Source: a virus. Taken from it: a DNA stretch of 64,000 nucleotides. The translations under genes and the position numbers were made by a program. A model generated the notes under the pieces. It worked only from the letters and a program-made list of their open reading frames with translations, had not been told where the DNA came from and ran no database searches. Positions 4,351 to 27,460 of this stretch are shown here, piece after piece (the stretch's first letter is position 1; every line of letters begins with the position of its first letter). The stretch is taken from UHGV virus genome UHGV-1353844, one strand, 5' to 3'.

Positions 4351-4881
4351 TTAAGCAGTAAAACCGTCCAATTCACCGTCGGTGGTGGCCAGGTCAATAC
4401 GATTATCGACTACCTTCGGTGTAATTACGAAAGTTGCCATTACACCCGGTTTATAACGGAGGTTCTGTTCAGTAACGGTGCATGTCACGGTACGCAGAGT
4501 GACGTTTTCATGTTCGTCTTTCTGGTCTTCGGTGCTGTACACAACGTCACCTGGCGCGATAGCGTCGTCAGGTTTTACTTTGTTGATGTATAGCTGTAAC
4601 CAAGCGCGGAGTTCATTTTCTTGAACCCAACGAGACAGATCGTCAGTTAGTTCAATCCGTCCTACAACACCCGGCTCCAGACGATCGTAATGCAGTTCGA
4701 TTTCGCCTTTGAAATTCTCAGAACCCGGTAGTGCGGTCATGGTAACTTTGGTATTCTTACTTTCGCCTTCCAGCGCAGTAGGGAGACCAAAGGACACTTC
4801 TTTATCTGTAATCTGATGCGGTAGCTCAGCGTTAGCAGCATTATAAAGCGCGACCAACATCATCTGGTTAGTAGCGGCCAT
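4351..4881 (-). CDS. paralog-family protein (HY.RL / ELDGFTA motifs), likely abundant virion protein
   Basis: 176-aa ORF with strong optimal codon bias; paralog of 4951-5487. Confidence 0.6.
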   Translation of the reverse strand: MAATNQMMLVALYNAANAELPHQITDKEVSFGLPTALEGESKNTKVTMTALPGSENFKGEIELHYDRLEPGVVGRIELTDDLSRWVQENELRAWLQLYINKVKPDDAIAPGDVVYSTEDQKDEHENVTLRTVTCTVTEQNLRYKPGVMATFVITPKVVDNRIDLATTDGELDGFTA

Positions 4882-4905
4882 TATCTTAGGTCCTTAATAG
4901 AACAA

Positions 4906-4930
4906 GTTAGAGAAATATCGGGGGAGGTCA
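4906..4930 (-). terminator. GC-rich hairpin with C8 homopolymer between paralog genes
   Basis: atcggggg...cccccccgat inverted repeat. Confidence 0.4.
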
Positions 4931-4950
4931 CCCCCCCCGATTTAACTTAC

Positions 4951-5487
4951 TTAGCCACCGACACCCGGTGCAGTGAAGCCATCAAGTTCACCTTCCAGAC
5001 CGCTCAGCGCTACCTTCTCAGGAGCTGGGTTGGAATAAGTGAAGGTGGCAATAGTACCAGCCAGGAATTTAATGTGTGCATCGTTTACTTTGACAGTGTA
5101 AACTTTAGCACCACTATCCCCGTCAGTTTTCTCAATGGTCAGTTCGCTTTCAGCGAAATAGTCATCGACATAACCTTTAGTAACCATTTCTTCGTTCAGT
5201 TTGGTTACAATGGCAGAGTTTTCCAGATCGAGGCTACCGGCTTTTTCGTAAGCTTTGGCACCGATCAGGTCTTGAGAAGCCAGACGAATGTAGTGGAATT
5301 CTTTCTCGCCTTTGAAGTTCTGGCTTTCTGCCTTGGCGGTCAGCGTAATTTTGGTGTTACGACCACCGGTACCGCTGTGCGCTTCGACAGCACCAAAATC
5401 GACATCATCAACCGTCAGATTAGAAGCGGTTCCTGGGTTTTTAGCAATTACAGCTTCGACGAACTGCAGTTTGAAGGTTTTAGCCAT
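4951..5487 (-). CDS. paralog-family protein (HY.RL / ELDGFTAPGVGG C-terminus), likely abundant virion protein
   Basis: 178-aa ORF, strong codon bias, SD gaggt; antisense ORFs 5074-5509 are shadows. Confidence 0.6.
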   Translation of the reverse strand: MAKTFKLQFVEAVIAKNPGTASNLTVDDVDFGAVEAHSGTGGRNTKITLTAKAESQNFKGEKEFHYIRLASQDLIGAKAYEKAGSLDLENSAIVTKLNEEMVTKGYVDDYFAESELTIEKTDGDSGAKVYTVKVNDAHIKFLAGTIATFTYSNPAPEKVALSGLEGELDGFTAPGVGG

Positions 5488-5625
5488 CTTTTTACCTCGT
5501 AAGTGGTAGGGGTGGATTGCATAAGAATGTTATTTTAGACATTTCCTAAAATATAGATATGACGGTTGGCAGTAGGCGCTAACCTGAAAAAATTAATTTT
5601 TCTTAATTTTAATAAGGGTGAGATT

Positions 5626-6105
5626 ATGCTAAAACGCATTCTCGTGGTCGTTGCTTTTGTAATGACATTGGCAAGTTGTGCTATTCAGCCGAACGCAGAA
5701 GGTCAGTTCTCCACCGTACCTGTTGACCAACACGATATGGTCATTTACACCTGTACAGCTGCTTCTCAAGAATTCGACGATTTTAAACCGGTACCGTCTA
5801 GCCTAAAACTGATGCCCCTTTCGGTGTTAGTCATGGATACAGGGGCGAATTGGGTCGCTACATGGGACGAAGGTAAAATTGAATCTCCGCAACTTTATAA
5901 AGACCTGTTAGGCAAGGTGGACGGTAACTTAAACGTTGTTACCGGTGAGCGCTATTACCGTGTAAACGGGTTACTGTCGAAAACCCCAACGTTTGCGTAT
6001 TCTACCGTCAACTACAAAACGGGTGAAGGTAAAGGTGTAACGTTCTTCAGATGTCACGAAGGCAGCATTCCGGATACCGGCACTATGTTGCACCCGGTAG
6101 AATAA
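5626..6105 (+). CDS. lipoprotein (signal peptide plus lipobox LASC); moron-like opposite-strand gene
   Basis: MLKRILVVVAFVMTLASC N-terminus; ATG at 5626 with SD; the ORF-track start at 5566 is a TTG extension. Confidence 0.65.
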   Translation: MLKRILVVVAFVMTLASCAIQPNAEGQFSTVPVDQHDMVIYTCTAASQEFDDFKPVPSSLKLMPLSVLVMDTGANWVATWDEGKIESPQLYKDLLGKVDGNLNVVTGERYYRVNGLLSKTPTFAYSTVNYKTGEGKGVTFFRCHEGSIPDTGTMLHPVE

Positions 6106-6109
6106 TAAA

Positions 6110-6145
6110 TACCCTCCTGCTTAGCAGGAGGGTAGGCTTATTTTG
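6110..6145 (+). terminator. rho-independent terminator of lipoprotein gene
   Basis: ccctcctgc-ttag-caggaggg hairpin followed by ttatttt. Confidence 0.7.
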
Positions 6146-6225
6146 TCCGTAAAACGCTCTAGAATGCGTTCTAAGACAGTTTATACAAAATAATGTACAA
6201 TCACCCTAAGTTAAGGATTATGCGC

Positions 6226-6741
6226 TTAGATTTTAACTAAGGCGCTCCAATCGATAGGGCTTTGTTTCACGACTTTCACAGTACCGCGATTCGGTGACCA
6301 GAACGTGATATTCGGTTGGTTACGAACGTCGATATGTAACCAACTGATGTCGCATTCGATAAAGTGAATGAACGGAAATTCGTCAGGATTAGCGGCGATA
6401 TAGTCGTGGACTTGTTTTACCGTTGAGTCTAACAGTGTTGCGTCAAATGCATTACCGAACTTGTGCTGACTCCCTGAATCAGAGTAGAGTTGTAACGCAC
6501 GTTGTTTATAGTTACCACCCTTAGGCTTTTCTTGGTTGATGAAAAAGTCTAAGGTTCTTAGGCCACGCTGTTGCGCAGCAGACGAGTTAATCACCATTCT
6601 GCCGAAACGGTTACGAATCTGTTGTAGCGAAATCATTAACAACGGGTTCATAAACCGAATTGCAGAATCACCGTATTTGGCGATGTACGATTGTGGTACT
6701 AACTCTTTGAGTTTAAAGTTACTCGGATTTGGATGAAACAT
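6226..6741 (-). CDS. zinc peptidase M15-like (D-Ala-D-Ala carboxypeptidase / L-Ala-D-Glu peptidase fold), cell-wall hydrolase
   Basis: SQHKFGNAFDA (SxHxxGxAxD) and HIDVR motifs. Confidence 0.55.
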   Translation of the reverse strand: MFHPNPSNFKLKELVPQSYIAKYGDSAIRFMNPLLMISLQQIRNRFGRMVINSSAAQQRGLRTLDFFINQEKPKGGNYKQRALQLYSDSGSQHKFGNAFDATLLDSTVKQVHDYIAANPDEFPFIHFIECDISWLHIDVRNQPNITFWSPNRGTVKVVKQSPIDWSALVKI

Positions 6742-7393
6742 CTTCCCTCCCAGACAGAAAAGCCCGTTTGATGTTCAAGTATTTGACATTAACGGGACAA
6801 CCTGTGGTGATATCAACACGTTCGTGGTCAGGAATAGCAGGCTCCTTAAACTCACGAACGAACAAATAGTTTCGATTGTAATCTAACGTACGGTAATCGT
6901 TAGTGGTATAAGACGGCTTCGCGTTAGGGTCTACGTAAGCATCCCAACCGAACCCCGCCACGGCTTTATAAAATGTTTGGCAGATATACGGCGAGATTTC
7001 CAACGACTGCATAATACGCAGGAATGTTAAGTCAGAGAACTCTTTATCGATAATACGCGAAACGTTACCACCCGGTGTCATGGGATAGCTACGCTCCGTG
7101 TTACATTTTTGATAGAGTAAGTCGTGAATGCAGGCCGCAGGTGCCCACGGTCCGTCAGGATGGAAAATTCCCTGTAAGTGTTCAGGAATTGACGCTAAAT
7201 CGGTAACGAACCCTTTCGGAGCGGTTAACCACAGTTGCGTGTCAGGTAATACACCGGTTAAATAAACCGCACGGTCTAAGTGTACGTGGTCGTGATAAAT
7301 CTCACGTAACGTAAACGGATAATGGTAATCCTCCGTTAATACAAACCACTTATTATCTAAACGTTTATATTGAAGCTTTTCCATTACCCACAC
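6719..7393 (-). CDS. DUF1353-like protein
   Basis: TDLASIPE and HDLLY motifs typical of DUF1353. Confidence 0.45.
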   Translation of the reverse strand: MWVMEKLQYKRLDNKWFVLTEDYHYPFTLREIYHDHVHLDRAVYLTGVLPDTQLWLTAPKGFVTDLASIPEHLQGIFHPDGPWAPAACIHDLLYQKCNTERSYPMTPGGNVSRIIDKEFSDLTFLRIMQSLEISPYICQTFYKAVAGFGWDAYVDPNAKPSYTTNDYRTLDYNRNYLFVREFKEPAIPDHERVDITTGCPVNVKYLNIKRAFLSGREDVSSKSE

Positions 7394-7500
7394 CTTTCCT
7401 TACAAAAACCAGAAGAACTCTTGTCCACGTTTTTCGTCTTTACGTTTCCGTCCAGACGTTAACGCTTTCCACAATAACGCTAAGAGTTTAGCAAACCAGT

Positions 7501-8091
7501 TCATTTTACTAACCCCGCTTTTACCGCATAATCTGCCATTTCTCTGAAGACGCGGCCGTACCAACCGTAGGTGTATTTCTCGTTTCTCTTACGTTTTTCG
7601 GAGATTTCCGTGTAGTAAGTTACTTGGTGCGAGATTAACGCAAAGATTAAAATGCTTAGCCCTTCATCTTTACGATATTTCAGGTACGCGTTCAACGCGC
7701 CCAGCGTTTTAGGCCCCATACCGCCGTCGGTATCGATGTCCGCGTAGAGTTTACCTTCGTTGTTCAACACGTTGAGAATACGCTGTAGCGATTTCACGCA
7801 GTTGGCACGACCTGCGTTAATACCAAAATCAAACATCCGGTCCGCGAGTAACGGTGAGATAGCGAAAATCTCATCAAGTTTGAGCTTCTTCCACCAACCG
7901 CGATCGTAGATATCGAATGCTTGTGCACGGGTAAGGTCTTTCATCTTCCCTGTGTAACCGTACTCACGTGCAGTCGTTACCGTGATACCGTGGTTCGTTT
8001 CTGCACCTAAGTCGTCAGGGTCGTTGACGTACCCGCCTTCCAAATCGGTTTTGGATTCAATGATACCTTCTTTAGACCAACGTTCAGCCAT
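7501..8091 (-). CDS. GH108-like lysozyme with C-terminal PG_binding_3-like domain (endolysin candidate)
   Basis: EGGYVNDPDDLGAETNHGIT N-terminal motif; C-terminal peptidoglycan-binding-like region. Confidence 0.55.
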   Translation of the reverse strand: MAERWSKEGIIESKTDLEGGYVNDPDDLGAETNHGITVTTAREYGYTGKMKDLTRAQAFDIYDRGWWKKLKLDEIFAISPLLADRMFDFGINAGRANCVKSLQRILNVLNNEGKLYADIDTDGGMGPKTLGALNAYLKYRKDEGLSILIFALISHQVTYYTEISEKRKRNEKYTYGWYGRVFREMADYAVKAGLVK

Positions 8092-8111
8092 TTTCGTTTA
8101 ACTCCTCTTTT

Positions 8112-8152
8112 ACACAAAAAAGAAAAGAGGGTGGGGATTACCCCCACCCTGT
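8112..8152 (-). terminator. rho-independent terminator
   Basis: agggtgggg-atta-ccccaccct hairpin with A-run on plus strand (T-run on minus). Confidence 0.65.
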
Positions 8153-8154
8153 AA

Positions 8155-8634
8155 TTATTTTTTCTTCTTAGCGCGTGATGGCTTAGCTGGCGGTGTTTCA
8201 ACAGCCGGTTTACGTGCAACACGCACCGTAAAACCGCCGACCCAAGTCAGACACTCAGGACGGAAGAAAATACCGTGTTCGATTGCGCTACCGTCCAACG
8301 GTAACTCACCAACCTGTTCTACCCACACGTCGTCTTCTGTAAGGGTTAGGCTGTACTGCTCGTTAATGACGGGCAGTAAGTCAGCGGTAGTCGTTGCAGA
8401 TTCTACCAACAGTTTCGGTAATACGTTCAGGAAATACAAACCTGCGTCAATGCGGTTATACTGGAACGTTTGTTCGTTAGTGTAACCGAGATTCTTAATT
8501 GACGCAACTGTGATTTCGGTATTGTAAGTACCGGTGGTCACAACCGGATCGCCCAGCGTGACTTTGGTGGTGTCGAACTCAGCGTCCGGGTTAGCCTTTT
8601 TAATAAGGTCGAAGATAGTTTCTTGATTGGTCAT
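8155..8634 (-). CDS. paralog-family protein (YNRID motif), basic C-terminal tail
   Basis: 159-aa ORF; shares Y.R[IL]...DLL..IN..Y.L motif with 8648, 16961, 26897. Confidence 0.6.
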   Translation of the reverse strand: MTNQETIFDLIKKANPDAEFDTTKVTLGDPVVTTGTYNTEITVASIKNLGYTNEQTFQYNRIDAGLYFLNVLPKLLVESATTTADLLPVINEQYSLTLTEDDVWVEQVGELPLDGSAIEHGIFFRPECLTWVGGFTVRVARKPAVETPPAKPSRAKKKK

Positions 8635-8647
8635 TACTGTAATCCTC

Positions 8648-9496
8648 TTAATCTAAGAATCCCGGTAAGACCGGATTAGTCTGTGCTAATTCAATCTTCG
8701 ACTTCGGACGATCGGTACCGTTAAAGTGAATTAACAGGTTACCGGTCAGGTTAGAACACAGCGGGCTGAGCGTTAGCACCAACACACGAGTGAACTTCGT
8801 ATTTGCGCCTTCGTAACCTGCGGTTGGACCATCGTAAATAACTTTAGCACCGTACAGGTTGTTAGCCGCGTTCTTAGGTACACTTACCCATTTCTCATCA
8901 ACGACGCCATCCAGTTTAGAGGCTAACTCTACCAAGTCTACGGTGTCGTTGATAGTAATCGGGTCAAGGTAATCTTTTTCTGCGGTGAAATCAATCGGGT
9001 GTGAATAAACCGCAGCGTTACCTTTCTTAGTGGACGGATACTCTACCAGATTCTCTAATTGAGTAACTGGTAAAAGTTCAGTCAGGTCAATAGGATCATG
9101 CAGCGTAAGCGTTACTACACCGCACCACTCGTAAGATTTCTCGTTAGCGGTAAGCTGATGGGTTTCGCCTTCAACTTTTGCGTCAACGATATCCGAGGGT
9201 AAAATATTTAGGCTGTATTTTGCGTTGATCGCATTAAGCAAATCTGATGCGGTTACCACACTGTCGTTACCGAATACCAACTCACCGGTTAAGTAGTCAG
9301 GTAAATTACGACGGTGGTAAGTCACTGTTAAAGTAGTAGACTCATCGCCTTTGAGTTTAGAGGTCAGAACCACCTGGGTATCAACCCCAGTACCGGTAGG
9401 TTCTCCGATATCAACATCACTGAAAGTCAACGGTGGACTAATATTGTTTTCAGTGTTGATGAGTTTTAGCAGTTTCTGTTTTGACGTAAGAGACAT
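8648..9496 (-). CDS. paralog-family protein (structural candidate)
   Basis: 282-aa ORF; motif similarity to 8155-8634. Confidence 0.6.
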   Translation of the reverse strand: MSLTSKQKLLKLINTENNISPPLTFSDVDIGEPTGTGVDTQVVLTSKLKGDESTTLTVTYHRRNLPDYLTGELVFGNDSVVTASDLLNAINAKYSLNILPSDIVDAKVEGETHQLTANEKSYEWCGVVTLTLHDPIDLTELLPVTQLENLVEYPSTKKGNAAVYSHPIDFTAEKDYLDPITINDTVDLVELASKLDGVVDEKWVSVPKNAANNLYGAKVIYDGPTAGYEGANTKFTRVLVLTLSPLCSNLTGNLLIHFNGTDRPKSKIELAQTNPVLPGFLD

Positions 9497-9599
9497 CGCG
9501 TTAACTCACAGTAAGTAAAAAGGTTTAAGAGGTCGTTTTACATCCCTCAGCCAGCATAGGAATAGTCGGGTAGGGTGTAAGTAAAGTAGCGTCAAAATA

Positions 9600-9656
9600 A
9601 CAAAAAAGAAAAGGGAAAGAAAATTAATTCCGCTATAGACCGAAGCCTATAGCGGA
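9600..9656 (-). terminator. rho-independent terminator
   Basis: ccgctatag-accgaagc-ctatagcgg hairpin preceded by A-rich run on plus strand. Confidence 0.6.
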
Positions 9657-9662
9657 GAGAGG

Positions 9663-10094
9663 TTAGCGAACGTTGTGTGCTAGGTACATCAGGGTCCGGG
9701 TGTCGATATCACGAGAAGTTTGCGACATCTGACTCAGTAGAGTGCTGGCAGTAGGGTCGTTGTAAACACGACTTAACCACTCGTCAACCATTTCTGGTAC
9801 AGTGTCGACTAAAAGCGGATAGTTAAGATTTTCCAGTGTGTATTCAACGAATTCGTGCATCAGATTCTGGTCACGATGCATAGAGTCGCCTAATTCACCT
9901 GCGGGATACTCTTCACGAGGACGTTTACCCCAGCTACAGATGTGCATGTAGTTAGTATTCACAATTTCCTGATATTCTTCTAACTTAACTAAATCGAAAT
10001 CAGTATTTGGACGACAGAAACCTGCTAAAACGCCCAGGGCAATCGGGTTGTTGCGAATGTAGTTACGGATATCATCTTTTAATACGAAAAACAT
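9663..10094 (-). CDS. hypothetical protein, paralog of 11352-11783
   Basis: 143-aa ORF; shared DxRxYIR and YPxGxxG motifs. Confidence 0.6.
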   Translation of the reverse strand: MFFVLKDDIRNYIRNNPIALGVLAGFCRPNTDFDLVKLEEYQEIVNTNYMHICSWGKRPREEYPAGELGDSMHRDQNLMHEFVEYTLENLNYPLLVDTVPEMVDEWLSRVYNDPTASTLLSQMSQTSRDIDTRTLMYLAHNVR

Positions 10095-10114
10095 TTTAAT
10101 GCTCCTTTAGGTAA

Positions 10115-11351: not shown

Positions 11352-11783
11352 TTATTCGTAGTTGTGCTTAAGGAACTCTAAAGCACGTTGGTCATTGGTT
11401 AATGCTACCGCCGACATTTTCTTTAAGGCTTGACGACAGTAAGCGTCACTCACAATACGTTGCTGCCAAGCATTAACAATTTCCGTGACTGTTTCTCCTT
11501 CTACAGCCGTATTGAGTTTATCGATAAAGTGACGTCCCATCAGATACGCAACTGCGTAGTCTGTGAACATCTCTGTACCGAAATCGCCGTCTGGGTAGTC
11601 AGCACGTTTCCGCACTGACATATCGGTAACAATTTGATACGACGACTTCACCACTTCGTGGAATTTTTCTACCGTTAAGGTATTAAGGTCCATACCCGAT
11701 AAAGAGAGTGAAGCCAGTACCGGAATACTGGCTGGGTATTTACGAATGTAATCACGCAAATCAGAATTTAGGGTTTTCATCAA
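11352..11783 (-). CDS. hypothetical protein, paralog of 9663-10094
   Basis: 143-aa ORF. Confidence 0.6.
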   Translation of the reverse strand: MMKTLNSDLRDYIRKYPASIPVLASLSLSGMDLNTLTVEKFHEVVKSSYQIVTDMSVRKRADYPDGDFGTEMFTDYAVAYLMGRHFIDKLNTAVEGETVTEIVNAWQQRIVSDAYCRQALKKMSAVALTNDQRALEFLKHNYE

Positions 11784-12525
11784 TTAATCCTGCCTTTATC
11801 CAATTTAAATAGTTAACACCAACTTTTACCGGAGTAAGTTTGTCGAGTTCCTTTATTAGCAGATCGTAGACGCGACGACCGACGCGGTTGTCACAAGTGA
11901 ACGAAGTTAATCCGTTAGCTCTTACAGTCACGCAAAACATTTCGCGAGTTTGTAAGTAGTCGTCATTGATTTTGTCTACAATTCCTTTGATCTCTTCGTA
12001 ATTGTAATAAGCAATCCGATCTTTGTGTAATAAGAACCATTCCGTAGCCTCGAATCTTCCCGGTACATGCGGAATATAGTCATAACGAATAAGGTTGTTA
12101 GGATGTACTTTTCCGTCGTAAGCGAGGGTGTAAAGATCTACGCAGTATGAAGGGTTGTGTTCAAAAAACTCTCTGAGTTTAGTGAGGTTTTTCTTTGGAG
12201 AATGCTTAAAATAAACAATATAGTTATTGCTATCAACCTCAACGATACCGTATAGTTTCTCAGAAACTGCCATAAATAACTTCTCGGCAGACTTTATGTC
12301 TTCTCCAGGTTTAACAAAGTTCAGAACTAAACAGGTAGCTTCGTCGGCAATAACGTCGGTAATGAATTCGTTTGCCCTATTTAATTCAACTTCATCAAAA
12401 CCGGCAATCTTAAGTTCGTTCCCGTAGAATTGATAAGCTAAATGCGGTGTAGAATTTTTCAGGAAGCTCGTGATAATGTGTCCTTGCTCGCGTACGTTGC
12501 TGTTTTTGAATTCGATAGTTTTCAT
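11761..12525 (-). CDS. hypothetical protein
   Basis: 254-aa ORF. Confidence 0.6.
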   Translation of the reverse strand: MKTIEFKNSNVREQGHIITSFLKNSTPHLAYQFYGNELKIAGFDEVELNRANEFITDVIADEATCLVLNFVKPGEDIKSAEKLFMAVSEKLYGIVEVDSNNYIVYFKHSPKKNLTKLREFFEHNPSYCVDLYTLAYDGKVHPNNLIRYDYIPHVPGRFEATEWFLLHKDRIAYYNYEEIKGIVDKINDDYLQTREMFCVTVRANGLTSFTCDNRVGRRVYDLLIKELDKLTPVKVGVNYLNWIKAGLIDENPKF

Positions 12526-13148: not shown

Positions 13149-13430
13149 TTAAAACCCCGCAATAAAGCTACCTAACGAAAGCCGCTGTAGGTATTTTGGC
13201 TTACGTGCCAGGTAACAGTTCTTAGGATTACCTATCGCCATCTGTGCAACCGCACGTTCTAAACGCGGTGCTTCTAAGATAGCACGATAGTTCCCTTCGT
13301 AATGCATTAACCATGCACACTCTTCAACAAAACGTTTTGCTTCTCGGTATTCTAACGTACGAATACGTTTCTTACCACGATACAAAACCACATCACCATT
13401 ACTACGAAATACAACCGTTTCACGCTTCAT
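13149..13430 (-). CDS. hypothetical protein
   Basis: 93-aa ORF. Confidence 0.5.
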   Translation of the reverse strand: MKRETVVFRSNGDVVLYRGKKRIRTLEYREAKRFVEECAWLMHYEGNYRAILEAPRLERAVAQMAIGNPKNCYLARKPKYLQRLSLGSFIAGF

Positions 13431-13773
13431 TAATAACCTCCCAATTCGCTCTTATAACTTCACGTTTATAATCATCAATTTCTTTACGGTAGAACTCTGT
13501 TTTTTCTTTTAATAATTTTAATATCTCTTCTTTAGGTAATTTTCCCTCACAACCCAATTCAGCAATAGCACAAACAAGGATGGTCAGATATTCCACTGAA
13601 CCGGTTTTCGCGCGGTATTCAGAGATAAGTTCTTTTTGCGTTTCAACTGTTTCTTCTAATAACTTGATATATTCTTCGTGCTTTGCACACTCTTTGCATT
13701 TTCCGAAACCTAACAATTTAAAAACCATTGTTACCACCGTTAGCAATCCAGGTTGCAACACGAACGTGTGCAT
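13420..13773 (-). CDS. hypothetical protein (start uncertain; overlaps upstream ORF)
   Basis: 117-aa ORF. Confidence 0.5.
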   Translation of the reverse strand: MHTFVLQPGLLTVVTMVFKLLGFGKCKECAKHEEYIKLLEETVETQKELISEYRAKTGSVEYLTILVCAIAELGCEGKLPKEEILKLLKEKTEFYRKEIDDYKREVIRANWEVINEA

Positions 13774-14026: not shown

Positions 14027-14029
14027 CTT

Positions 14030-14404
14030 TTAAATCTCCACCGTAGTTCGTTCAGTTTCTTTAATAAATCTATGGACCGACTCACCTAATTTCTTTACAC
14101 TATTACTAAGTTTAATAAGCGTATCGAAATAGTGTTGCGCTGTTCGACCAAATAACATCGGTCCTGCTTTCAGTTCCAATGCAGAAACCAGATAGAGTTC
14201 GGGAAGAAAAATAGCACCGCCTTTACGACCTATCCTGACGGTGATATTGCGTACCTGAACATTAATTAGTTTACCGTCAGGGAGTACCACAATTTCGGTA
14301 TACCAGTCTGTTGCTTTAACGATCGTTCTGACATTCTCACCACAAGCCCAGGTTTTAAACGAGGTGTCTAGCCAACATCTGAATTTGTATAACAGTAATG
14401 ACAT
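14030..14404 (-). CDS. hypothetical protein
   Basis: 124-aa ORF. Confidence 0.5.
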   Translation of the reverse strand: MSLLLYKFRCWLDTSFKTWACGENVRTIVKATDWYTEIVVLPDGKLINVQVRNITVRIGRKGGAIFLPELYLVSALELKAGPMLFGRTAQHYFDTLIKLSNSVKKLGESVHRFIKETERTTVEI

Positions 14405-16756: not shown

Positions 16757-16802
16757 GAAAAAATAAAAAAGAAAGGTAGTAGGGGCTTAGCCCCTACTAC
16801 CT
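16757..16802 (-). terminator. rho-independent terminator
   Basis: ggtagtagggg-ctta-gcccctactacc hairpin preceded by A-run on plus strand. Confidence 0.65.
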
Positions 16803-16960: not shown

Positions 16961-17473
16961 TTAACCACCAAAGGTTAAGACGCGATTATCTGCGGTAACG
17001 ATTAAATCGTTGTCTTTTACTACAGCGGCTTCTTCGTCGTTACCGAAAACCAGAACGGAGAATTGGCCTTTATAACCTAACGAGTTGGGTGAAACCTGTA
17101 ACGTTACAGCGTCTTTCCCTACGGTAAATGATTCGTCGGTAAGATCGTCGGGTTGTAAATTACAACCGCAAGCCGCGTTAATTCCGTCGATTAGATCGTG
17201 TGCGGTAAAACCATTACCGGAAACCTTTACCAGAATAGGTTGCTGGTTTAACCACCGCTCTGCGGTTAAACGGTTGTAATAGATTTGTAACGTTCTGTTA
17301 CCAGGACGTTTTATCTTTACAACAGCAGTGGTGTCACGATCCATTTCGTTACTGGTCTTTACGTCGCTGACTTCAACCTCGTTCTCTTGCAGGTCGAGCT
17401 GGAGGTCATGGTTAACCAGTGAAATAACCATGTTAAGTGAAGTTAACGACAAATCAGGCGTGAATTGTTCCAC
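16961..17473 (-). CDS. paralog-family protein (PDLSLTS N-terminus, YYNRL motif); GTG start
   Basis: 170-aa ORF, SD AGGAGG 8 nt upstream of GTG; paralog of 26897-27460. Confidence 0.6.
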   Translation of the reverse strand: MEQFTPDLSLTSLNMVISLVNHDLQLDLQENEVEVSDVKTSNEMDRDTTAVVKIKRPGNRTLQIYYNRLTAERWLNQQPILVKVSGNGFTAHDLIDGINAACGCNLQPDDLTDESFTVGKDAVTLQVSPNSLGYKGQFSVLVFGNDEEAAVVKDNDLIVTADNRVLTFGG

Positions 17474-17572: not shown

Positions 17573-18076
17573 TTAACTAATCTTCAAATCTCTTAATGTG
17601 CCGGTTGATTTCATCACGTTTTGGAAAGCAGTGCTAATGTTAGAGGTCCAGTAATAATGTTGACCATTAATAACCTGCTGATAGGCTACCGTACAAGTGT
17701 TGCCGCCTAGATTTACGGTGATGTTAGAAGCTCTCCCACCTTGTAAATAGACCGCTAAACTTGGTTTTGCATCAGCAGCCAATGTGATCAATAGTAGTTG
17801 GATACCAATAAGTGTGCCTACGCCGCAGCTACCAGGATTCTGAATAGTCCCTTTATTTTTCTGCGCTAACGGCCAGTTTGGTCCCACCGCACCCCAAAAT
17901 TTAGCCATTGAATCGCTATATGCAGCAGTTGCGATTTTACAGCCAAGAGATCGGCCCACCATTTGACTCATCATAAAAGGTCTACCCAATCCTAATTTAC
18001 TACCAGCAGCACTCATCCATTGTTCGCCCGTTTCGTTCTTGGCCGAAGAACCGACCCATCCAGATGCTACCCCCAT
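17573..18076 (-). CDS. fibre-associated protein sharing N-terminal ~45 aa with the Gly-rich protein (possible tip adhesin variant)
   Basis: GWVGSSAKNETGEQWMS N-terminus paralogous to 18137-18919. Confidence 0.55.
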   Translation of the reverse strand: MGVASGWVGSSAKNETGEQWMSAAGSKLGLGRPFMMSQMVGRSLGCKIATAAYSDSMAKFWGAVGPNWPLAQKNKGTIQNPGSCGVGTLIGIQLLLITLAADAKPSLAVYLQGGRASNITVNLGGNTCTVAYQQVINGQHYYWTSNISTAFQNVMKSTGTLRDLKIS

Positions 18077-18136
18077 TATACCCTATCCTTTTGAAAGGTG
18101 TGAGGAGGGGAGTGAGTATCCCCATACTTTTTCAAA

Positions 18137-18919
18137 TTAAACACGTGAACCATATATTGCACCTACTGCGTCCCATCTTGGCGCATTACCTCTAACGGCT
18201 GCACCAGCGGCTCCGCCGTTATATTCTGTACCGTTACCATGAGTATTACATCTTCCTCCAGCAGCACCGACATTACCACCCGAACCGCCTGTATATGCAC
18301 TAAGAGACCCCTCACCAACAGATCCTCTACCAGGAGCGGAAATAGTACCAGCAGCTGCACCGGAACTCATATGTGAGGAAGACCCACCAGCACCGAATGG
18401 GCGACCACCGCCACCACCAAATATTAGTCTACCCCTGTTACCGCCGCCACCGCCGCCACCGCCTCCGGCAATAGCGCCACGGTTGGTTATACGCAGTCTG
18501 TTTCCTATTCCGTTCTGTATTGCGGTTCCACCTGCACCGCCTGGTGAGTTAGAACCGCCGTTGCCTCCTCTGCCGTATACTGTAACCCCAGGATTGATGA
18601 TGAGTGTAATATACGAATTTGGAAGATTGCTAGGGAATTCTAAACAAGGAACCCCGCTACTATAAGACACTAAATCCCCTGTAATGGTCACAACGACAGC
18701 ATTAGAGCCTATAGAACGTAAATAGTTAATAAGCGTATCTTTATTGTAATTGTGATTAGCCCCGATCGAATACTGAACCTCTTTTGATTTTCCCGCCAAT
18801 TGCGACATCCAGCCTGGAACCGGCACACCAAGTGTGCGCATCGCGCCAGACATCCAATCGTTACCAGTTTCAGCTTTTGCTGAAGAACCAATCCAACCAC
18901 CTACGCCGACAACTGCCAT
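18137..18919 (-). CDS. glycine-rich protein immediately downstream of tail fibre (possible adhesin or tip protein)
   Basis: poly-Gly tracts (GGGGGGGGGN, GGGGRPFGAGG); start overlaps fibre stop (TAATG). Confidence 0.6.
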   Translation of the reverse strand: MAVVGVGGWIGSSAKAETGNDWMSGAMRTLGVPVPGWMSQLAGKSKEVQYSIGANHNYNKDTLINYLRSIGSNAVVVTITGDLVSYSSGVPCLEFPSNLPNSYITLIINPGVTVYGRGGNGGSNSPGGAGGTAIQNGIGNRLRITNRGAIAGGGGGGGGGNRGRLIFGGGGGRPFGAGGSSSHMSSGAAAGTISAPGRGSVGEGSLSAYTGGSGGNVGAAGGRCNTHGNGTEYNGGAAGAAVRGNAPRWDAVGAIYGSRV

Positions 18920-21900
18920 TAGGATCTTCCTTTAATTTCGTTAACCTCTTGACGCAACGCTTTCATACCCTCTACTAACAGCGCAATAACGCCATTGTAG
19001 TTTAGACGTAAACGTTTTTCGCCTGAAATGGCATCATCATCCTCAGACACAAGTTCAGGTAACGCTTCTAATGCGTCTTGAGCAATTAGACCTACCGAAG
19101 TGTTCCAACCGTCGTCTGGATGTTGAACCTCGTACAGATAGCCGGTAAGCGCTTCTAACCGATCCAAAGCCTTATCCAGCTTCACCAGATTACGTTTGTT
19201 GCGACGGTCAGAACGAATCTGTACGTCGTTAAACGAACCGTTACCGTTGCTAGAAATGTTATGACCAAAGGTTACTTGACCGTTAGAGTTATTAAAATAC
19301 AACGGACGTAGTCCGTTCCAGGAACCCGTTGCGGCTTGTCCGGAGTCGGTTACTAAGAAATAGGTATTGGCACCATCATTACGTAAAATGAAACCGCAGC
19401 TACCGTAAGCGATTCGGAAATCAGCATACTTCGTAACCAGTTTACCGTTAACCGTTAAATCGCCAGTGACAGTACCGCCGCTGTTCTTCAAAAACAGCGC
19501 ATCAATCCAGCCTGCAAATCCTGACTTATTGATGTATAAATTTCCATCATTTGCCAGAATGCCGCCACCCGGCGTCTTGAGAGGCTGACTCACATTTTGC
19601 AGCGTCAGCACACCATTCAATTGACCGCCAGATAATGGCAACGCCCCAACATCCGCAGCAGTTGGCTTGTTTTTCGTATTGTAAGCGCGACGCCAACCTG
19701 GTGAGTAAGCATCACCGTTATTTACGTAGATAAACTCCGCATTAGTGAGTGCGCCGCCGACGCTCGTCGTTGTGGGGGTCGTTATACGGATCGTGTAGTT
19801 GTTTGCGCTGTTACTAATCACTTCTATAACAGCCCCAGCTAACGGAATAACACCACAACCCGTCTCGCTGTTCGGTATGGACGCACTAGCAGCATAAGCC
19901 CATGCACAGCGAGCAACCCATGATTTTGTGGTAAACGCGCCGTTATTTTGCAATAACGTCACTAGCTGTGCTGTAGTTATTGCGCCGCCGTCTTTACCAG
20001 TCTCCAACCAACCAGTGGGCGAAGCCGGACAACCTATATCGGCAGGCCCTAACGATATATTTCTAGTACCGTCAAATGCGATACCGTTAATGGTACGCGC
20101 TGTCTGCAACTTTGTTGCCGTGGCTGCGTTTCCGGTAGTCGACTGATTACCCGTCTGGTTTACACCGGGCAGACTAATGTCTTGCGAACCGTCAAAGTTA
20201 ACACCGCCGATCTTACGTGCTGTTTGTAACTTAGTAGCGGTCGCTGCATTACCTGTCGTATTCTGGTTGCCTTGCTGGTTAACCCCCGGTAAATTGATAT
20301 CCCCAGTACCGTCAAAGGTAACGCCGCCGATTCTGCGAGCGGTTTTCAGTTTCGTCGCGGTAGCGGCATTGCCAGTAGTATCCTGATTACCGGTGGTATT
20401 TACACCAGGAATACTGTCACGGGCAGTATAAACTTGTGCCCAATCTGACCACGGCGCATCAGCCGTATCGCGTCGACTACGAATATAAACGGGTGCGTGT
20501 GCACCACTCGTGCCCGACCAACCAATTAACAACTCACCTTCGCCTAGCGCATTAGCACCACCTAAGTGCAGCAAGTTACCATAGGCGGTTGGATAACCGT
20601 TATTGTAAACTTCGTACATCTGGATACCAGGTGTACCCTTGTTCGACCCGGTCAGAGCGGTAACCCGTCCACGACCTACCAAGGTGTTGATATTGATGTC
20701 TCCAGAGCCATCGAATTTCACACCGTTAATATTTCTGGCGGTTTGAAGTTTAGTGGCTGTCGCGGCGTTACCTGTGGTGTTTTGATTACCTTGTTGGTTA
20801 ACACCTGGGAGGTTAACGTCGCCGCTGCCGTCGAAAGCGACCCCGCCAATTCTACGCGCAGTCTGGAGCTTAGTGGCGGTTGAAGCATTGCCGGTTAACT
20901 CACCTGCTAACCCTTTTGCAAAGGTCTGTTTCTCTGCCCAAGTGTGGGCTGCGTTCAACACAGGCATCTGTCGTGGCGTAATCGTACGGCTACCCTTCTC
21001 GCCAGCGATACGTACTGCAAAGAAGCGATAGTTAGCAGTAGACACTGTACCGCGCCAGACCAACATACTCCGACCAGTACCGGTGTCCTCTGACGCCCCT
21101 ACGAGAATACTGACCAAGTTACCGTCAATAACACCCCAATCCATTCCCGCAGGAATGTTTTTCATGGTATTCAACGGTGTACTTATCATCTGGCCAGGAA
21201 CGAAATCGAAGGTTTGCCAGTCTAACGGATCGACCTTGGCAGCAACCCCACCGATCCCTAAAGCCAACGGGAGTGAATAGGATGTGAAAATCTCTCGCCA
21301 TTCGCTCCAGGCGTTTCCTGTACGAATTCGTTGGAACTTGCGACCTTTCGTAGTTGCGCCTGTACCGTATGTGGTATAATTTTGTTCAACGCCTGAACCG
21401 TCTAAGCGTAAGGTAACTTCGCAAACACCTAACAAGGTTGCGCCAGCAGAGTCTGTTAACGGACCGTCAGTAGCCTCACCGGTAACACTAAAACGACCAG
21501 GTTTAGTTAAGTCATTAAAGCTACCCTTATAGTAGGCACCGTCTACCTGATACCCAACTTGAATCCAATCTTCCCACTGTGGATTAGACGCATCCCAAGT
21601 CGCAGTCAACCCACGGACATACATCGTACCACGACGAGTGGTGTAACGTTGCATACGTCCGTAGAGACCACCTTCCATTACTTCTAATACACCTTGAGCA
21701 TTACCACCTTCTTCGGGATAATGACGATCGAACGTCGCAAGAGAAGAACTGGAGTTACGCCACTGACCCATGTGTTCAACACCACCTAAAGTGTTAAGGT
21801 CAATAGTGGTGGAGAGCGGACGGTTCGCGGTAGTTGTCATTCTCCAGGGCGACCAAGGGCCGTTAGTACCGTTCCAGGTTCCTGTTAAACGACGAGTATA

Positions 21901-23385
21901 GACGTTACCGTTACGTATGGTAAAACGTTGGCTTCCGCTGTAGTTACCTGCTTTGAATACCTCTAAGTAACCAACTGCATCGTCTTCCGGGAAGTTCTTT
22001 GCAATTGTTGCATTCGTAGACGTGGCTTTAGACCAGACACCCATAAACGCTTCGACTGGGCCGAAGGTGTTGATATCCGCATCTACTGCCATTTCCCCAT
22101 TAAACTTCAAATACGTCTCTGCTGACAACCCGATGTTCTTCGCGAAGGTGACTTTATCTGGAATATCGGCACCGTTAGAACTGCGTTGCATAGCACCCGC
22201 AGCTTTATCAACAGTGGTTTTCAAACCCAGGAAGTTAATGATATCTGCCGTCGACCCTTTCGCTAACAAATCACGCGCAGTCGAGGTGAAATCCGCTAAC
22301 CCTACCTGATTACTACCGGTAAAGTAAGGGAGTTTGTTTGCAGCGGTGGTGACTGCGGCAATCGCTGTCAGTAACGGACTTAACGGCTGTTTACCCGCGA
22401 GTTGGTTCGTCATCGTTGTCGCAAAGTTAGGATCGTTTCCTAACGCAGCTGCAATTTCTGATAACGTATCTAACGTCTCGGGTGAAGAGTCCACTAATTC
22501 AGCAATCGCTTGCCGTACCCATGCGGTCGTTGAGACGCTCGTGTCGTTAGAATCCGAAGCAGGTGTTGGTGCTTTTACCACACCGGTAAAAGTTGGGTTG
22601 TGACGGTTTGCTTTTAACTGCAAATCTTCATTTAACTGCTTAACCGTTGACGGCGTAGCCGCTTCAGTAACAGAGTCACTGCTTAAGGTATTATTAAGTC
22701 TAACGATACCTTTACTGGTCGTTGTTGCATCAACGTTACCTTTTGCAGCGATTTCTTCTGCACGCTTAGCCGCTGCCTCAGAACGCGTTGCCGCATTCTC
22801 TGCGGTTTCTTTGTCTGTGGTAACTTGCGTTGCTGTAGCTTCTACAGCGGCTTTTGACGACTCTACCGACGCGACAGCTTCGTTAACTGCCGTAAGCGAC
22901 TGTTCGACTTGACCGGCTTGTGTGGCAACAGTTTCTGCTTTCTTCGTAACGGTAGTCACCGCTTGTGTGACGTTGGCCTCGCTTGCCGCTACCGCTTGCG
23001 CTTTCTCATTAACGGACACAACCTGGGTATCTACCGCCGTTTTCGCGGCTAACACTTCAGTGTGTTTTGTACCGACTTCAGTTGCTTTTTCGGTTACAGT
23101 TTGCGCTTGTTGAGCAACTGTAGCCGCAACGGTGTCAGTTTGTTGTTTTGCTGTTTCTGCTAAATTCTTTGCTTGTGTAGCCTGAGTTGCAGCTTCTTGT
23201 GATTGTGTTGCTGCTGTTTGTGCATCAGACACCGCATTACGTACGGTGTCAATATCTGCAACGATCTCACGGACAGGTAACTTATAATCTTTCTCATCCT
23301 TGGAAAAAAGTAAAACACCTTCACCTATATCCCCGGTGTATGGACGTAAATCGTGTAAACGAATTTTCTTTACCGCTTTAGCCAT
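18919..23385 (-). CDS. long tail fibre protein with N-terminal anchor, A/T/Q-rich coiled coil, five NTTGNAATATKLQTAR repeats and C-terminal intramolecular chaperone (S74-type autoproteolytic) domain
   Basis: 1488-aa ORF; C-terminal SDRRNKRNLVKLDKALDRLEALTGYLYE segment; repeat motif typical of phage fibre repeats. Confidence 0.85.
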   Translation of the reverse strand: MAKAVKKIRLHDLRPYTGDIGEGVLLFSKDEKDYKLPVREIVADIDTVRNAVSDAQTAATQSQEAATQATQAKNLAETAKQQTDTVAATVAQQAQTVTEKATEVGTKHTEVLAAKTAVDTQVVSVNEKAQAVAASEANVTQAVTTVTKKAETVATQAGQVEQSLTAVNEAVASVESSKAAVEATATQVTTDKETAENAATRSEAAAKRAEEIAAKGNVDATTTSKGIVRLNNTLSSDSVTEAATPSTVKQLNEDLQLKANRHNPTFTGVVKAPTPASDSNDTSVSTTAWVRQAIAELVDSSPETLDTLSEIAAALGNDPNFATTMTNQLAGKQPLSPLLTAIAAVTTAANKLPYFTGSNQVGLADFTSTARDLLAKGSTADIINFLGLKTTVDKAAGAMQRSSNGADIPDKVTFAKNIGLSAETYLKFNGEMAVDADINTFGPVEAFMGVWSKATSTNATIAKNFPEDDAVGYLEVFKAGNYSGSQRFTIRNGNVYTRRLTGTWNGTNGPWSPWRMTTTANRPLSTTIDLNTLGGVEHMGQWRNSSSSLATFDRHYPEEGGNAQGVLEVMEGGLYGRMQRYTTRRGTMYVRGLTATWDASNPQWEDWIQVGYQVDGAYYKGSFNDLTKPGRFSVTGEATDGPLTDSAGATLLGVCEVTLRLDGSGVEQNYTTYGTGATTKGRKFQRIRTGNAWSEWREIFTSYSLPLALGIGGVAAKVDPLDWQTFDFVPGQMISTPLNTMKNIPAGMDWGVIDGNLVSILVGASEDTGTGRSMLVWRGTVSTANYRFFAVRIAGEKGSRTITPRQMPVLNAAHTWAEKQTFAKGLAGELTGNASTATKLQTARRIGGVAFDGSGDVNLPGVNQQGNQNTTGNAATATKLQTARNINGVKFDGSGDININTLVGRGRVTALTGSNKGTPGIQMYEVYNNGYPTAYGNLLHLGGANALGEGELLIGWSGTSGAHAPVYIRSRRDTADAPWSDWAQVYTARDSIPGVNTTGNQDTTGNAATATKLKTARRIGGVTFDGTGDINLPGVNQQGNQNTTGNAATATKLQTARKIGGVNFDGSQDISLPGVNQTGNQSTTGNAATATKLQTARTINGIAFDGTRNISLGPADIGCPASPTGWLETGKDGGAITTAQLVTLLQNNGAFTTKSWVARCAWAYAASASIPNSETGCGVIPLAGAVIEVISNSANNYTIRITTPTTTSVGGALTNAEFIYVNNGDAYSPGWRRAYNTKNKPTAADVGALPLSGGQLNGVLTLQNVSQPLKTPGGGILANDGNLYINKSGFAGWIDALFLKNSGGTVTGDLTVNGKLVTKYADFRIAYGSCGFILRNDGANTYFLVTDSGQAATGSWNGLRPLYFNNSNGQVTFGHNISSNGNGSFNDVQIRSDRRNKRNLVKLDKALDRLEALTGYLYEVQHPDDGWNTSVGLIAQDALEALPELVSEDDDAISGEKRLRLNYNGVIALLVEGMKALRQEVNEIKGRS
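20040..20420 (-). repeat. imperfect ~120-bp tandem DNA repeats inside fibre gene encoding the GNAATATKL repeats
   Basis: three successive units ending ccgtcaaa(g)ttaacaccgccgat / ccgtcaaaggtaacgccgccgat. Confidence 0.6.
20693..20895 (-). repeat. second block of the same fibre repeat
   Basis: units gccatcgaatttcacaccgttaat / gccgtcgaaagcgaccccgccaat. Confidence 0.55.
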
Positions 23386-23419
23386 GATATTTAATTCTCT
23401 ATCGGGAGCTAAAAGATCT

Positions 23420-23453
23420 GGGGGAGGTAAAGCACCTCCCCCAACATTTTTAT
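23420..23453 (-). other. GC-rich hairpin between enzyme gene and fibre gene (attenuator or terminator)
   Basis: gggggaggt-aaagc-acctccccc. Confidence 0.4.
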
Positions 23454-23463
23454 AAGCGGGTTA

Positions 23464-26400: not shown

Positions 26401-26469
26401 GAAGGATTGGTGACCGTAAGCTAACGATAACGCGTAGCTAATCGCGTGACGCTGAAAATGTTTTCTCAT
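23464..26469 (-). CDS. large W/Y-rich enzyme-like tail protein (candidate polysaccharide-degrading depolymerase)
   Basis: 1001-aa ORF rich in Trp/Tyr/Asp; lies in-frame directly after anchor ORF, separated only by TAA. Confidence 0.65.
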   Translation of the reverse strand: MRKHFQRHAISYALSLAYGHQSFVTRNTGTTNDAHIDHYIQNEEGVLSNNRHFIADTMAEYQPNGDATTEGQSLHIIGYCHMYIATKDERWLDAAKHAWDAYNTYFYAGQPIPTTPQRRICNWLVNGKEPVLAHYPIHPTEPTNGGYKCVPVRFTNGQCKIPHGAPFWGEYLDICTFAYRGHPAWAAINADVQIIKEDKEGSINWEDVLTHVITNPDKPYESTAWVDWPTLLNNTTGYTPLWGGSATKAPKHDVDWIIAWTGNKIQDGEIIETGLADADKGTVQLKDTQLNGVYLINYAVKLPVEHGGYEFKRNEPWHNRPVHTPFLGSKNQYGNAADAELWFIDACYLLWRITGEEKYKQALDCAFYTAHEYTYIDATDKFFRRSTAADTPFTDGISYDFDYPDTVSATYGRDENGDITIHVPEAAQHFMEQKAVRFRINKDSKLRVTYGGVCKNGDPVYCKVMVNINPAKADTEEVNWYGLTLPRSTVNTVKQYDVDLGQLSRITTPEGGDYLIAEARACSDYGGCTWEERFEDSIYDGRAGTVVEAEFPDDSAGFIIGFWLTAEEKVKPVSIVYRADADFNLRLVDSDNWLWWWMLPNTNNEWRQVTLNPDEATLSGYQPDHTDADPKPSAPNFDKVDQVTILPDSTVDHAHFAYYCVNDVPPVFNKDDGYILTFRIALRGGAEFDAKVGDCTIVDYRLDSLAYCPGTIPFTNSYLEGSEQLGAWHGMPYPGYQYPFMYSIHKDDRYKLWLDNQIQFLHDSQLAYQQQIGELGPGCAAYIWNRWDNYSYGEADTWTTFHWGDDHPWAGYQPRAFHAACRCWYELKLRGKDVPEALTTYIDNWVNWLGGFVDRFNGHTPNEFPTAPDKAVWVENDFTAHMCGLWLAGCCWALLAGATNPNYEKVVNAAIKELGEGFTITSIPNKPINGAWSPAARESSDNGMAYGFYTGEVLRALGLYVTYKTYGPNANIYRDLAITDHSQAVLDVTLTIEDVPLKPEQ

Positions 26470-26931
26470 TTAGTAACCCGCTGCAAGAAGAGAACCTTTC
26501 CAAGTGGCACCCCCGTCAAGGGTATAAAGCGACAGAGTGTCTTCCGCATTTGCCGTGTAGGATAAAACCGGTTTTGCACCGTGAGGCCACTTAACGTTTT
26601 CAGGCCAGGTTACTTTATTCGCCCCTGTTCCCTGCTTAAACGTTAGCATTACTTCGAAACGGGTATTTTCCGCAACGTTAGTAAGGGCTGCGAACGTCAC
26701 CGTAGTAGTGGGATCGTTTAACACCAGAATAATGTCAGTGCTGGTATTGAAATCCAACGTGGCGGCATTATTCGAACCGTTAACCGTGGTGACTGTCGCA
26801 ACCGGGGCTAACTTATCAACATCAATTTTATATTCTTTATTGTCTTTGCTATACAGCAGTACCCCGCCCTGCGGTGTGCCTGCGTAGCTTTCGAGCTCAT
26901 GGAGTCTCGTCTTCTTCAGTGCTGTCGCCAT
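26470..26931 (-). CDS. tail-fibre N-terminal anchor-domain protein
   Basis: MATALKKTRLHELESYAGTPQGGVLLYSKDNKEYK aligns with fibre N-terminus MAKAVKKIRLHDLRPYTGDIGEGVLLFSKDEKDYK; ATG at 26931 with SD GAGG. Confidence 0.6.
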   Translation of the reverse strand: MATALKKTRLHELESYAGTPQGGVLLYSKDNKEYKIDVDKLAPVATVTTVNGSNNAATLDFNTSTDIILVLNDPTTTVTFAALTNVAENTRFEVMLTFKQGTGANKVTWPENVKWPHGAKPVLSYTANAEDTLSLYTLDGGATWKGSLLAAGY

Positions 26932-27460
26932 CTGTAACCTCGAATGTAAGAACGGCATTGTCACCAATACAGAAGATTGCATCTTCTTCGTTTGCTAATG
27001 CCCGTTCGGTTGTATCAAACAACGTCACCATAAACGCGTTCATCCACGCAGGAGAATCGTCGGCAACGTTAACGGAAATGGGATCGTTACCTAAAGTGAT
27101 ATCTGAAGCACGTAAATCCTCGGGTTGTAAGTTCGTTCCGCAGAATTCATTTACAACACTAAGAATGTCACGAACGTTGTCTTCAGTACCGTCTAACGAA
27201 ATCAGAATGGGTTCATACGTTAATACTTCATCTGCGTCGAGTCTGTCGTAATAAACCACAACAGACGCACCATCTGGTTTTCTGATTTTACTGATTTCGG
27301 TAATGGTGTTACGACGCGAAGTTGTTGGAGATGAGTTTGTTACGGTCCCGCTAATACGTATTTCGTTTAGCGTAAGCTGTAACCCATTATCGTGATTGAT
27401 TAAAGCGACCACTAGCTCTGCTGAGGTCAGACTCAAATCAGGTACGTATGGTGTGGCCAC
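26897..27460 (-). CDS. paralog-family protein (PDLSLTS, VYYDRL); GTG start
   Basis: 187-aa ORF; paralog of 16961-17473. Confidence 0.6.
   Translation of the reverse strand: MATPYVPDLSLTSAELVVALINHDNGLQLTLNEIRISGTVTNSSPTTSRRNTITEISKIRKPDGASVVVYYDRLDADEVLTYEPILISLDGTEDNVRDILSVVNEFCGTNLQPEDLRASDITLGNDPISVNVADDSPAWMNAFMVTLFDTTERALANEEDAIFCIGDNAVLTFEVTDGDSTEEDETP

Follow-up and report, generated by a model that had tools for sequence, protein, structure and literature searches.

The 64,000-nucleotide stretch of the virus genome UHGV-1353844 that we analysed (hereafter the window) carries six minus-strand open reading frames (ORFs) which a first-pass annotation had singled out as a diversifying paralog family of small virion proteins. 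All six are found at the proposed positions, and we refer to them as A (4351-4881), B (4951-5487), C (8155-8634), D (8648-9496), E (16961-17473) and F (26897-27460); a seventh member, G, lies on the same strand at 47375-47902. A–G belong to the Pfam family DUF7941, which is the 'paralog family B' of phage SPN3US and the group of DUF7941 proteins of phages Goslar and phiKZ. The family has already been described and the window genes are additional members of it, so that the original observation is correct but largely known. A (176 aa, of the gp23/gp160 subtype, ending in ...GELDGFTA) and B (178 aa) are single-module proteins, D (282 aa) is a full-length member with an N-terminal domain (residues 1-137), a disordered linker (138-155) and a C-terminal domain (156-266), and C (159 aa) consists of the N-terminal domain followed by a Pro/Lys-rich tail (…PAKPSRAKKKK). 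E (170 aa) and F (187 aa) begin with GTG, and G measures 175 aa from its ATG, the longest ORF beginning with TTG at 47929.

A DUF7941 family in the window

Every one of A–G passes the curated gathering cut-off of DUF7941 (PF25613; 27 bits, whole-protein score), with 35.8 bits for A, 31.5 for B, 99.1 for C, 174.2 for D, 61.7 for E, 72.0 for F and 52.7 for G; in A and B the Pfam model covers only residues ~4-76. A–F also match PHROGs 1037, 2935, 3589 and 4862, annotated 'virion structural protein', with best-family E-values between 1e-21 and 5.5e-62 per protein (PHROG 4862 matches A at 8.6e-34 and B at 1e-41), and G matches PHROG 2935 at 1.7e-50 and our local family hidden Markov model (HMM) at 6e-8. 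Pairwise BLASTP is significant for A–B (4e-14), E–F (1e-33; 35.5% identity), D–E (5e-5) and D–F (6e-4), and not significant for C–D (0.05) or for A and B against the remaining members, which they resemble in sequence over the N-terminal ~70 residues only. Taken alone, BLASTP would split the genes into A/B, C, D/E/F and G, a division that we rejected in view of the Pfam and PHROG profiles and the structure matches. Alignment of within-clade ortholog profiles by hhalign joins the six genes by single linkage (A–B 99.6%, E–F 99.7%, D–F 94.8%, D–E 85.5%, B–D 81.9% and C–D 67%).

The short motifs that first drew attention to these genes largely survive closer inspection. In its strict form the central [HY]Y.R[LI], attributed to all six, occurs in A, B, E and F, at residues 64-70, and in no other of the 411 window ORFs of at least 50 aa (expectation ~0.004 per protein); C carries QYNRI and D carries TYHRR, and since these fail the strict pattern the motif common to all six is Y.R. 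The ELDGFTA C-termini of A and B and the PDLSLTS N-termini of E and F are exact matches, and the block proposed for C and D is present with a gap of five residues (DLL..IN..Y.L.....D[IV]), not three (DLL..IN..Y.L...D[IV]). Both GTG starts are backed by a Shine-Dalgarno sequence 5-8 nt upstream (AGGAGG in E, GGAGGG in F), by an in-frame stop just upstream of each and by the position of the PDLSLTS block, which precedes the next possible start codon. Among the three pairs into which the genes had been arranged, A–B and E–F are significantly similar by BLASTP; C and D are not recent duplicates and match SPN3US gp141 and gp138, respectively.

Domain architecture and fold were checked by AlphaFold2 models of D and B. 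The D model (mean predicted local distance difference test score, pLDDT, 75.9) has a linker at 138-155 with pLDDT below 50 and a disordered tail after the C-terminal domain, an arrangement of N-terminal domain, linker and C-terminal domain that is also reported for Goslar gp22. Its only significant Foldseek match in the PDB is phiKZ gp127 (9xqd_0; E 3.6e-6, probability 1.0), on whose N-terminal domain that of D superposes with a template modelling (TM) score of 0.64 normalised to the target; the C-terminal domains also align by sequence, and PHIKZ127 is matched by D in phmmer (2.6e-5) and by a D-type profile (2.1e-14). B is modelled as one confident module with a less confident tail (pLDDT 93.8, predicted TM score 0.81), its secondary-structure elements following the order of the D N-terminal domain. 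The B model has 57 full-length matches at E <=1e-3 in BFVD, all of the chimallivirus DUF7941 type; the named ones come from phiKZ-like jumbo phages or an unclassified myovirus, and many form the N-terminal module of a tail or tail-fibre protein, among them an 870-aa tail protein of Goslar. Both predicted structures agree with the architecture described for Goslar gp22 and gp23, in which a globular N-terminal domain is followed by a disordered linker and, optionally, by a globular C-terminal domain. A linker or tail peptide is found in all members but C, which has no LDGF-type motif: it reads LDGF in A, B and G, VLTF in E and F, LENLVEY in D and KLDGLVYP in SPN3US gp141. Across 49 B alleles the LDGF peptide is relatively conserved, and the 35-42 loop and the extreme C-terminus vary.

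Could A and B nevertheless be unrelated in fold to the other genes, sharing short motifs by chance? Neither is significantly similar to C, E, F or G by BLASTP and hhalign, the Pfam model stops at residue ~76 of each, and the B model finds no Foldseek match to gp127 in the PDB. Against this stand scores of both proteins above the curated Pfam cut-off, the B–D profile alignment, the B-centred profile whose top PDB match is PHIKZ127 (E 0.0055), the alignment of the B model with DUF7941-type chimallivirus proteins over 150-190 columns at E-values down to 2e-14, and the identical order of secondary-structure elements in B and D; the SPN3US authors, too, grouped gp160 with gp138-154 by PSI-BLAST (PMC5694885). 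We consider a chance resemblance highly improbable. With significant profile matches for every gene and structure matches for D and B, the family stands, and all six genes proposed for it are true paralogs.

The count of six, on the other hand, is too low, the window holding seven or eight members. A broader family HMM sets exactly seven window ORFs apart, the next being 42508-43146 on the minus strand (E 0.065), a candidate eighth and divergent member resembling SPN3US gp91, with a TYTKL motif and a TTLDGLNY linker motif. Its ortholog profile aligns with the family N-terminal-domain profile (hhalign 88.8%, E 2.5e-6), and it has no Pfam match. The protein corresponds to PHROG 10571, and its orthologs in SPN3US and Erwinia phage Asesino bear, C-terminally, a second motif, xxGF[KR]Y. 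A search for further members with two local HMMs, and with Pfam for ten neighbouring proteins, returned none beyond G and this weak candidate.

Outside the window, a profile built from the seven paralogs retrieves 2122 clusters at 50% identity (E <=1e-3). Among them are single modules, chains in which LDGF-type linkers join two or three modules, and proteins whose N-terminal module is fused with LamG ×6, BNR or arabinofuranosidase domains. Some repeat proteins of apparently Mollicutes type match as well, which accords with a report on Spiroplasma: P0190 and P0220 are long repeat proteins with 8-15 copies of an ~85-residue unit matching the N-terminal part of DUF7941, and one of them has DUF285 repeats of the Mycoplasma type as well. 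Chimalliviruses are therefore not the only source of the module, or of its N-terminal subdomain, and the claim of exclusivity made in the Goslar preprint is not fully borne out.

Gene neighbourhoods, expression and variation

G lies between two genes of the baseplate. Directly upstream is the wedge protein (47910-50105, minus strand), a homolog of phiKZ gp128 (PDB 9xqs_C PHIKZ128, E 6e-82), whose wedge role is described in PMC13250141; directly downstream is the spoke protein (46495-47382, minus strand; Pfam DUF7208), a homolog of phiKZ gp139 and Goslar gp32 (PDB 9xpg_A PHIKZ139, E 2.9e-34). Upstream of the wedge a gene annotated only as virion structural protein occupies the position of the phiKZ and SPN3US portal genes. 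The same gene order recurs in phiKZ, SPN3US and Goslar (portal, wedge, DUF7941 protein and spoke in Goslar), G being the positional counterpart of SPN3US gp83, phiKZ gp127 and Goslar gp34. In phiKZ the gp139 band extends outward from the wedge gp128 and ends at gp127 (PMC13250141), an arrangement mirrored by the wedge-G-spoke order of the window. The wedge protein itself ends in ...KINDLDGFTLDQLPK, with an LDGF motif as in the tails of A, B and G; the DLDGF peptide, a hypothetical docking peptide, lies seven residues from the C-terminus (47934-47948, minus strand). The motif has the form D[LM]DGF.LDQLPK in the window clade and in SPN3US (DMDGF in SPN3US gp82) and is absent from phiKZ gp128 and Goslar gp35. 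The wedge C-terminal region was also considered as a cryptic DUF7941 module, an idea we rejected for want of a family-HMM match beyond the five-residue motif.

Terminator-like hairpins are enriched (15 versus 6.3±2.6 expected; 26 versus 12.2±3.5) and delimit the transcription units in which the family genes lie. D and C form one unit, with hairpins upstream of D (9629-9656, minus strand) and after C (8128-8150). B and A each stand alone, separated by an intrinsic-terminator-like hairpin on the minus strand (4917-4941; 11-bp stem with eight GC pairs, T-rich tail), and a bidirectional hairpin follows A (4287-4313). E closes a unit made up of a long tail fibre gene, two gp38-like adhesin genes and E itself, with a hairpin behind it (16774-16802), and F opens another, comprising F, a tail fibre gene and the gene of a 1001-aa tail protein, between terminators at 27520-27493 (minus strand, just upstream of F) and 23444-23418. 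Sigma-70 promoter-like sites are not enriched, which is to be expected of a phage that has RNA polymerases of its own, and no tRNA genes were found in the window. The long-tail-fibre region (17573-23385, minus strand) encodes a T4-like distal subunit (1488 aa) and the two adhesins, a place taken in SPN3US and Asesino by small hypothetical genes; across the clade the long tail fibre is 70-82% and one adhesin 62-84% identical. In the F-led unit 86 nt at the 3' end of F (26897-26982, minus strand) also belong to the longest ORF of the tail-fibre gene (26470-26982); the PHROG alignment of this ORF begins at residue 17, so that the true start is probably internal, and a shorter overlap exists in Asesino. 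The relative L018 has no detectable homolog of the 1001-aa tail protein.

Codon usage sets some members apart. By the codon adaptation index (CAI), computed with E. coli weights and ranked over 72 genes, B (CAI 0.555, effective number of codons 36) ranks second, exceeded by the major capsid gene alone (0.704), with A (0.431) fourth and C (0.426) fifth; the other members are average. Where two members had been credited with extreme codon usage, there are one extreme and two moderate cases.

B is also the most variable structural gene among close relatives, its alleles being 54-91% identical among clade members, as against 92-100% for the structural genes that flank it; F and G, too, diverge somewhat more than the genes around them. 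Ratios of nonsynonymous to synonymous substitution rates (dN/dS; pairwise Nei-Gojobori, gene-wide) are 0.13-0.41 for B and 0.11-0.17 for A, as against 0.01-0.10 for neighbouring genes, within whose range C and D fall; only A and B exceed it, and the family as a whole spans 0.06-0.41. As these values are always below 1, gene-wide diversifying selection is not demonstrated, and the raised dS of B points to allele exchange. The family can be called diversifying in the sense of copy-number flux and allele replacement, above all of B, and not in the sense of proven positive selection. B is likely the bulk, highly expressed subunit, hypervariable among close relatives. Beside it on the opposite strand, at the position of SPN3US gp159, the gene 5566-6105 (plus strand) has alleles of 67% versus 94-97% identity, partly in step with those of B, the two genes forming a small variable island between the conserved tail-chaperone and A genes. 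Elsewhere, the small genes 11761-12525, 13420-13773, 14030-14404, 36248-36931 and 3042-3632 show allele replacement: their products have 39-51% amino acid identity between clade members whose identity is otherwise ~90-99%, and the genome backbone is therefore mosaic.

Comparison with related phages

The 1001-aa tail protein is 76% identical to its counterpart in Asesino and 71% identical to that in SPN3US, which places the window in an SPN3US/Asesino-like jumbo phage (Chimalliviridae). A megablast search of 4351-9496 against the phage collection gave no match, and no isolated phage in the collection searched shares more than 60% identity with D, so that the clade lacks a close relative among these isolates. 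In sequencing data from Salmonella and E. coli it is nonetheless widespread: D is present at 96-99% identity on contigs of 215-227 kb in many Salmonella enterica and E. coli isolate assemblies, in metagenomes and in IMG/VR, a recurrence that might be due to a carrier state or to contamination of cultures. The clade is represented by the loci L004-L011 and L014-L022, and D-bearing contigs also occur in ENA and Logan assemblies. Two adjacent radical-SAM genes of the window (862-3103, plus strand), assigned through 99% identity to Pfam-annotated genes of L006, are kept in SPN3US as a pair beside a DUF4376 gene (3608-4282 in the window).

Paralog family B of SPN3US comprises gp83, gp122, gp138-154, gp160/161 and gp237 (PMC5105663, PMC5694885), and our local family HMM matches 14 SPN3US ORFs, including the gp138-154 array, gp122 and gp160. 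Sequence and synteny make A and B co-orthologs of gp160 (36% and 44% identity) and pair D with gp138 (46%), C with the gp141 N-terminal domain (37%) and F with gp122 (45%); G holds the gp83 position, and E has no SPN3US counterpart within the regions examined. The abundant SPN3US members correspond to the codon-biased genes of the window. Copy number has changed in both directions: the 17-gene tandem array that SPN3US (gp138-154) shares with Asesino has shrunk to D and C, and the single gp160 of SPN3US is represented by A and B in the window and by three genes in the relative L014. These three lie in tandem at L014:2691-4422, one with 85% identity to B and the others with 56% and 92% identity to A; two A/B-type genes are present in each of the SPN3US-like contigs L012 and L013.

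Goslar has ten members (gp22, gp23, gp31, gp33, gp34, gp86, gp91-93 and gp161; bioRxiv 10.64898/2026.04.21.720040), only 22-35% identical to those of the window. Its gp23 (180 aa, an N-terminal domain and linker with the tail ...ADGF...) best matches A and B, A being its best match in the window, and gp22, gp33 and gp34 match D, C and F; the abundant pair adjoins the endolysin gene in both phages. Three Goslar members are fused to carbohydrate-binding, hydrolase or leucine-rich repeat domains, whereas all window members are small and single-module, and the Goslar wedge gp35, unlike that of the window, has no C-terminal LDGF. phiKZ has about three members (gp126, gp127 and gp143), about 17-27% identical to those of the window, gp127 being the one seen in PDB 9xqd (PMC13250141). 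The phiKZ order of portal gp129, wedge gp128, gp127 and gp126 parallels the portal position, wedge and G of the window; the wedge-adjacent member is full length in phiKZ (290 aa) and short in the window (G, 175 aa).

Role in the virion

What might these proteins do? Orthologs in SPN3US and Goslar are virion proteins confirmed by mass spectrometry (PMC5694885; bioRxiv 10.64898/2026.04.21.720040), and by analogy with them we infer that the window proteins are incorporated into virions. The proposal that they are small virion proteins linked to host recognition, as fibre accessories or receptor-binding proteins, is sustained by the DUF7941 membership of all of them and by these orthologs; it gains further from phiKZ gp127, modelled in the outer baseplate (PDB 9xqd), from the position of E and F in tail-fibre operons and from the lectin and glycosidase fusions found elsewhere. 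Copy numbers are high: the Goslar virion contains ~2140 copies of gp23 and ~580 of gp22 (bioRxiv 10.64898/2026.04.21.720040), and SPN3US gp141 and gp160 exceed 300 copies (PMC5694885). Purified Goslar gp22 forms filaments, AlphaFold predicts head-to-tail dimers joined through the linker, and the preprint proposes a 'fibre cloud' anchored on the peripheral baseplate (bioRxiv 10.64898/2026.04.21.720040). The window data fit this model, and on balance we favour, with some confidence, a reading of the family as virion proteins built on the DUF7941 module that act as self-associating fibre or adaptor subunits at the baseplate periphery and aid host adsorption.

Each protein has an alpha/beta N-terminal module of ~140-150 residues with the Y.R motif, followed by a flexible linker, to which D adds a C-terminal domain of ~110 residues. 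By comparison with Goslar and phiKZ, each protomer may dock through its linker or tail on the N-terminal module of the next, and such docking would yield flexible head-to-tail chains on the outer baseplate; oligomerisation finds indirect support in the conserved linker motif and in the natural fusions of two or three modules. B, with A, would be the abundant bulk subunit of the gp23/gp160 type, and D and C would be subunits of the gp22/gp138/gp141 type. G may serve as the unit nearest the baseplate, where the gp139-like spoke ends, and E and F, co-expressed with fibre and adhesin genes, probably couple the products of those genes to the network; the gene context of these three points to a peripheral baseplate location. 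A fibre cloud of this kind would enlarge the capture radius for host adsorption, and the turnover of B alleles would follow from exposure at the surface. Family membership, fold, synteny, codon bias and variability are shown by the data, whereas polymerisation, location and a part in adsorption are inferred.

Several observations weigh against this reading. The gene-wide dN/dS is below 1 for all members, and the B model has no significant Foldseek match in the PDB. The fibre-cloud model comes from a preprint and is built on AlphaFold predictions, negative staining of one protein and one partly modelled phiKZ subunit. SPN3US gp122, the ortholog of F, was not detected in wild-type virions (PMC5694885). 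A peripheral baseplate location is, moreover, contradicted by the head proteomics of SPN3US, where in two tailless mutants the family was found with DNA-filled heads and the authors still count 21 proteins of paralog family B among those of the head (PMC5105663, PMC10052503).

The SPN3US authors thus assign to the head what we would place at the baseplate, and the tailless-particle data keep decoration, in the sense of a head location, a live rival. The proteins would then be head components, whether external decoration, attached to the neck or collar, or internal, and the gp127 position would be special to the G-type member. The retention of gp138-154 and other paralog B proteins in particles of the gp64 and gp255 amber mutants (PMC5105663, PMC10052503) speaks for such a location, and the abundance of gp141 and gp160 was confirmed in tailless particles (PMC5694885). 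Self-assembling filaments would, however, co-purify with any type of particle and could explain the head signal; the one member with a solved structure is found in the outer baseplate, other proteins occupy the capsid and neck positions in the Goslar maps, E, F and G belong to tail and baseplate operons, and the module is fused elsewhere to lectin or glycosidase domains and, in BFVD, to tail and tail-fibre proteins. We judge a head location unlikely, though deserving of serious weight. Less likely still, in our estimate, is a role as adaptors or assembly factors, that is, short stoichiometric connectors that dock receptor-binding proteins, form no long polymers and take no direct part in host capture. 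One gp127 per star lobe in phiKZ (PMC13250141), the co-transcription of E and of F with fibre genes, and the N-terminal DUF7941 modules that precede receptor-binding-type domains in large proteins would all suit such connectors; the very high copy numbers of gp23/gp160-type proteins in Goslar and SPN3US, the extreme codon bias of B, the Goslar gp22 filaments formed in vitro and the existence of multi-module fusions speak against such a role.

A more specific version of the polymerising fibre that we favour can be imagined along the lines of Lego bricks, although we regard it as speculative and rather unlikely. Any protein with an LDGF-type peptide at its end would act as donor of that peptide to a DUF7941 protein, with the N-terminal module as acceptor. 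The D[LM]DGF.LDQLPK end of the wedge protein, as a hypothetical donor peptide, could then seed chains directly at the inner baseplate; C, an acceptor module with a poly-lysine tail and no donor peptide, would cap them; and B, highly expressed and allele-swapping, would be the exposed bulk subunit under host-driven selection. Chains nucleating away from the baseplate, or free, would reconcile the SPN3US head proteomics with the baseplate placement in phiKZ and Goslar.

DUF7941 proteins are among the most abundant components of chimallivirus virions, and their location and role are disputed, between the head (SPN3US) and baseplate fibres (phiKZ, Goslar). The window presents a compact natural variant of the system, with seven or eight small single-module genes in place of a 17-gene array, a duplicated and allele-variable abundant subunit, and a possible anchor peptide on the wedge protein. 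If the fibre model is true, these genes would determine adsorption efficiency and would be relevant to engineering the host range of jumbo phages.

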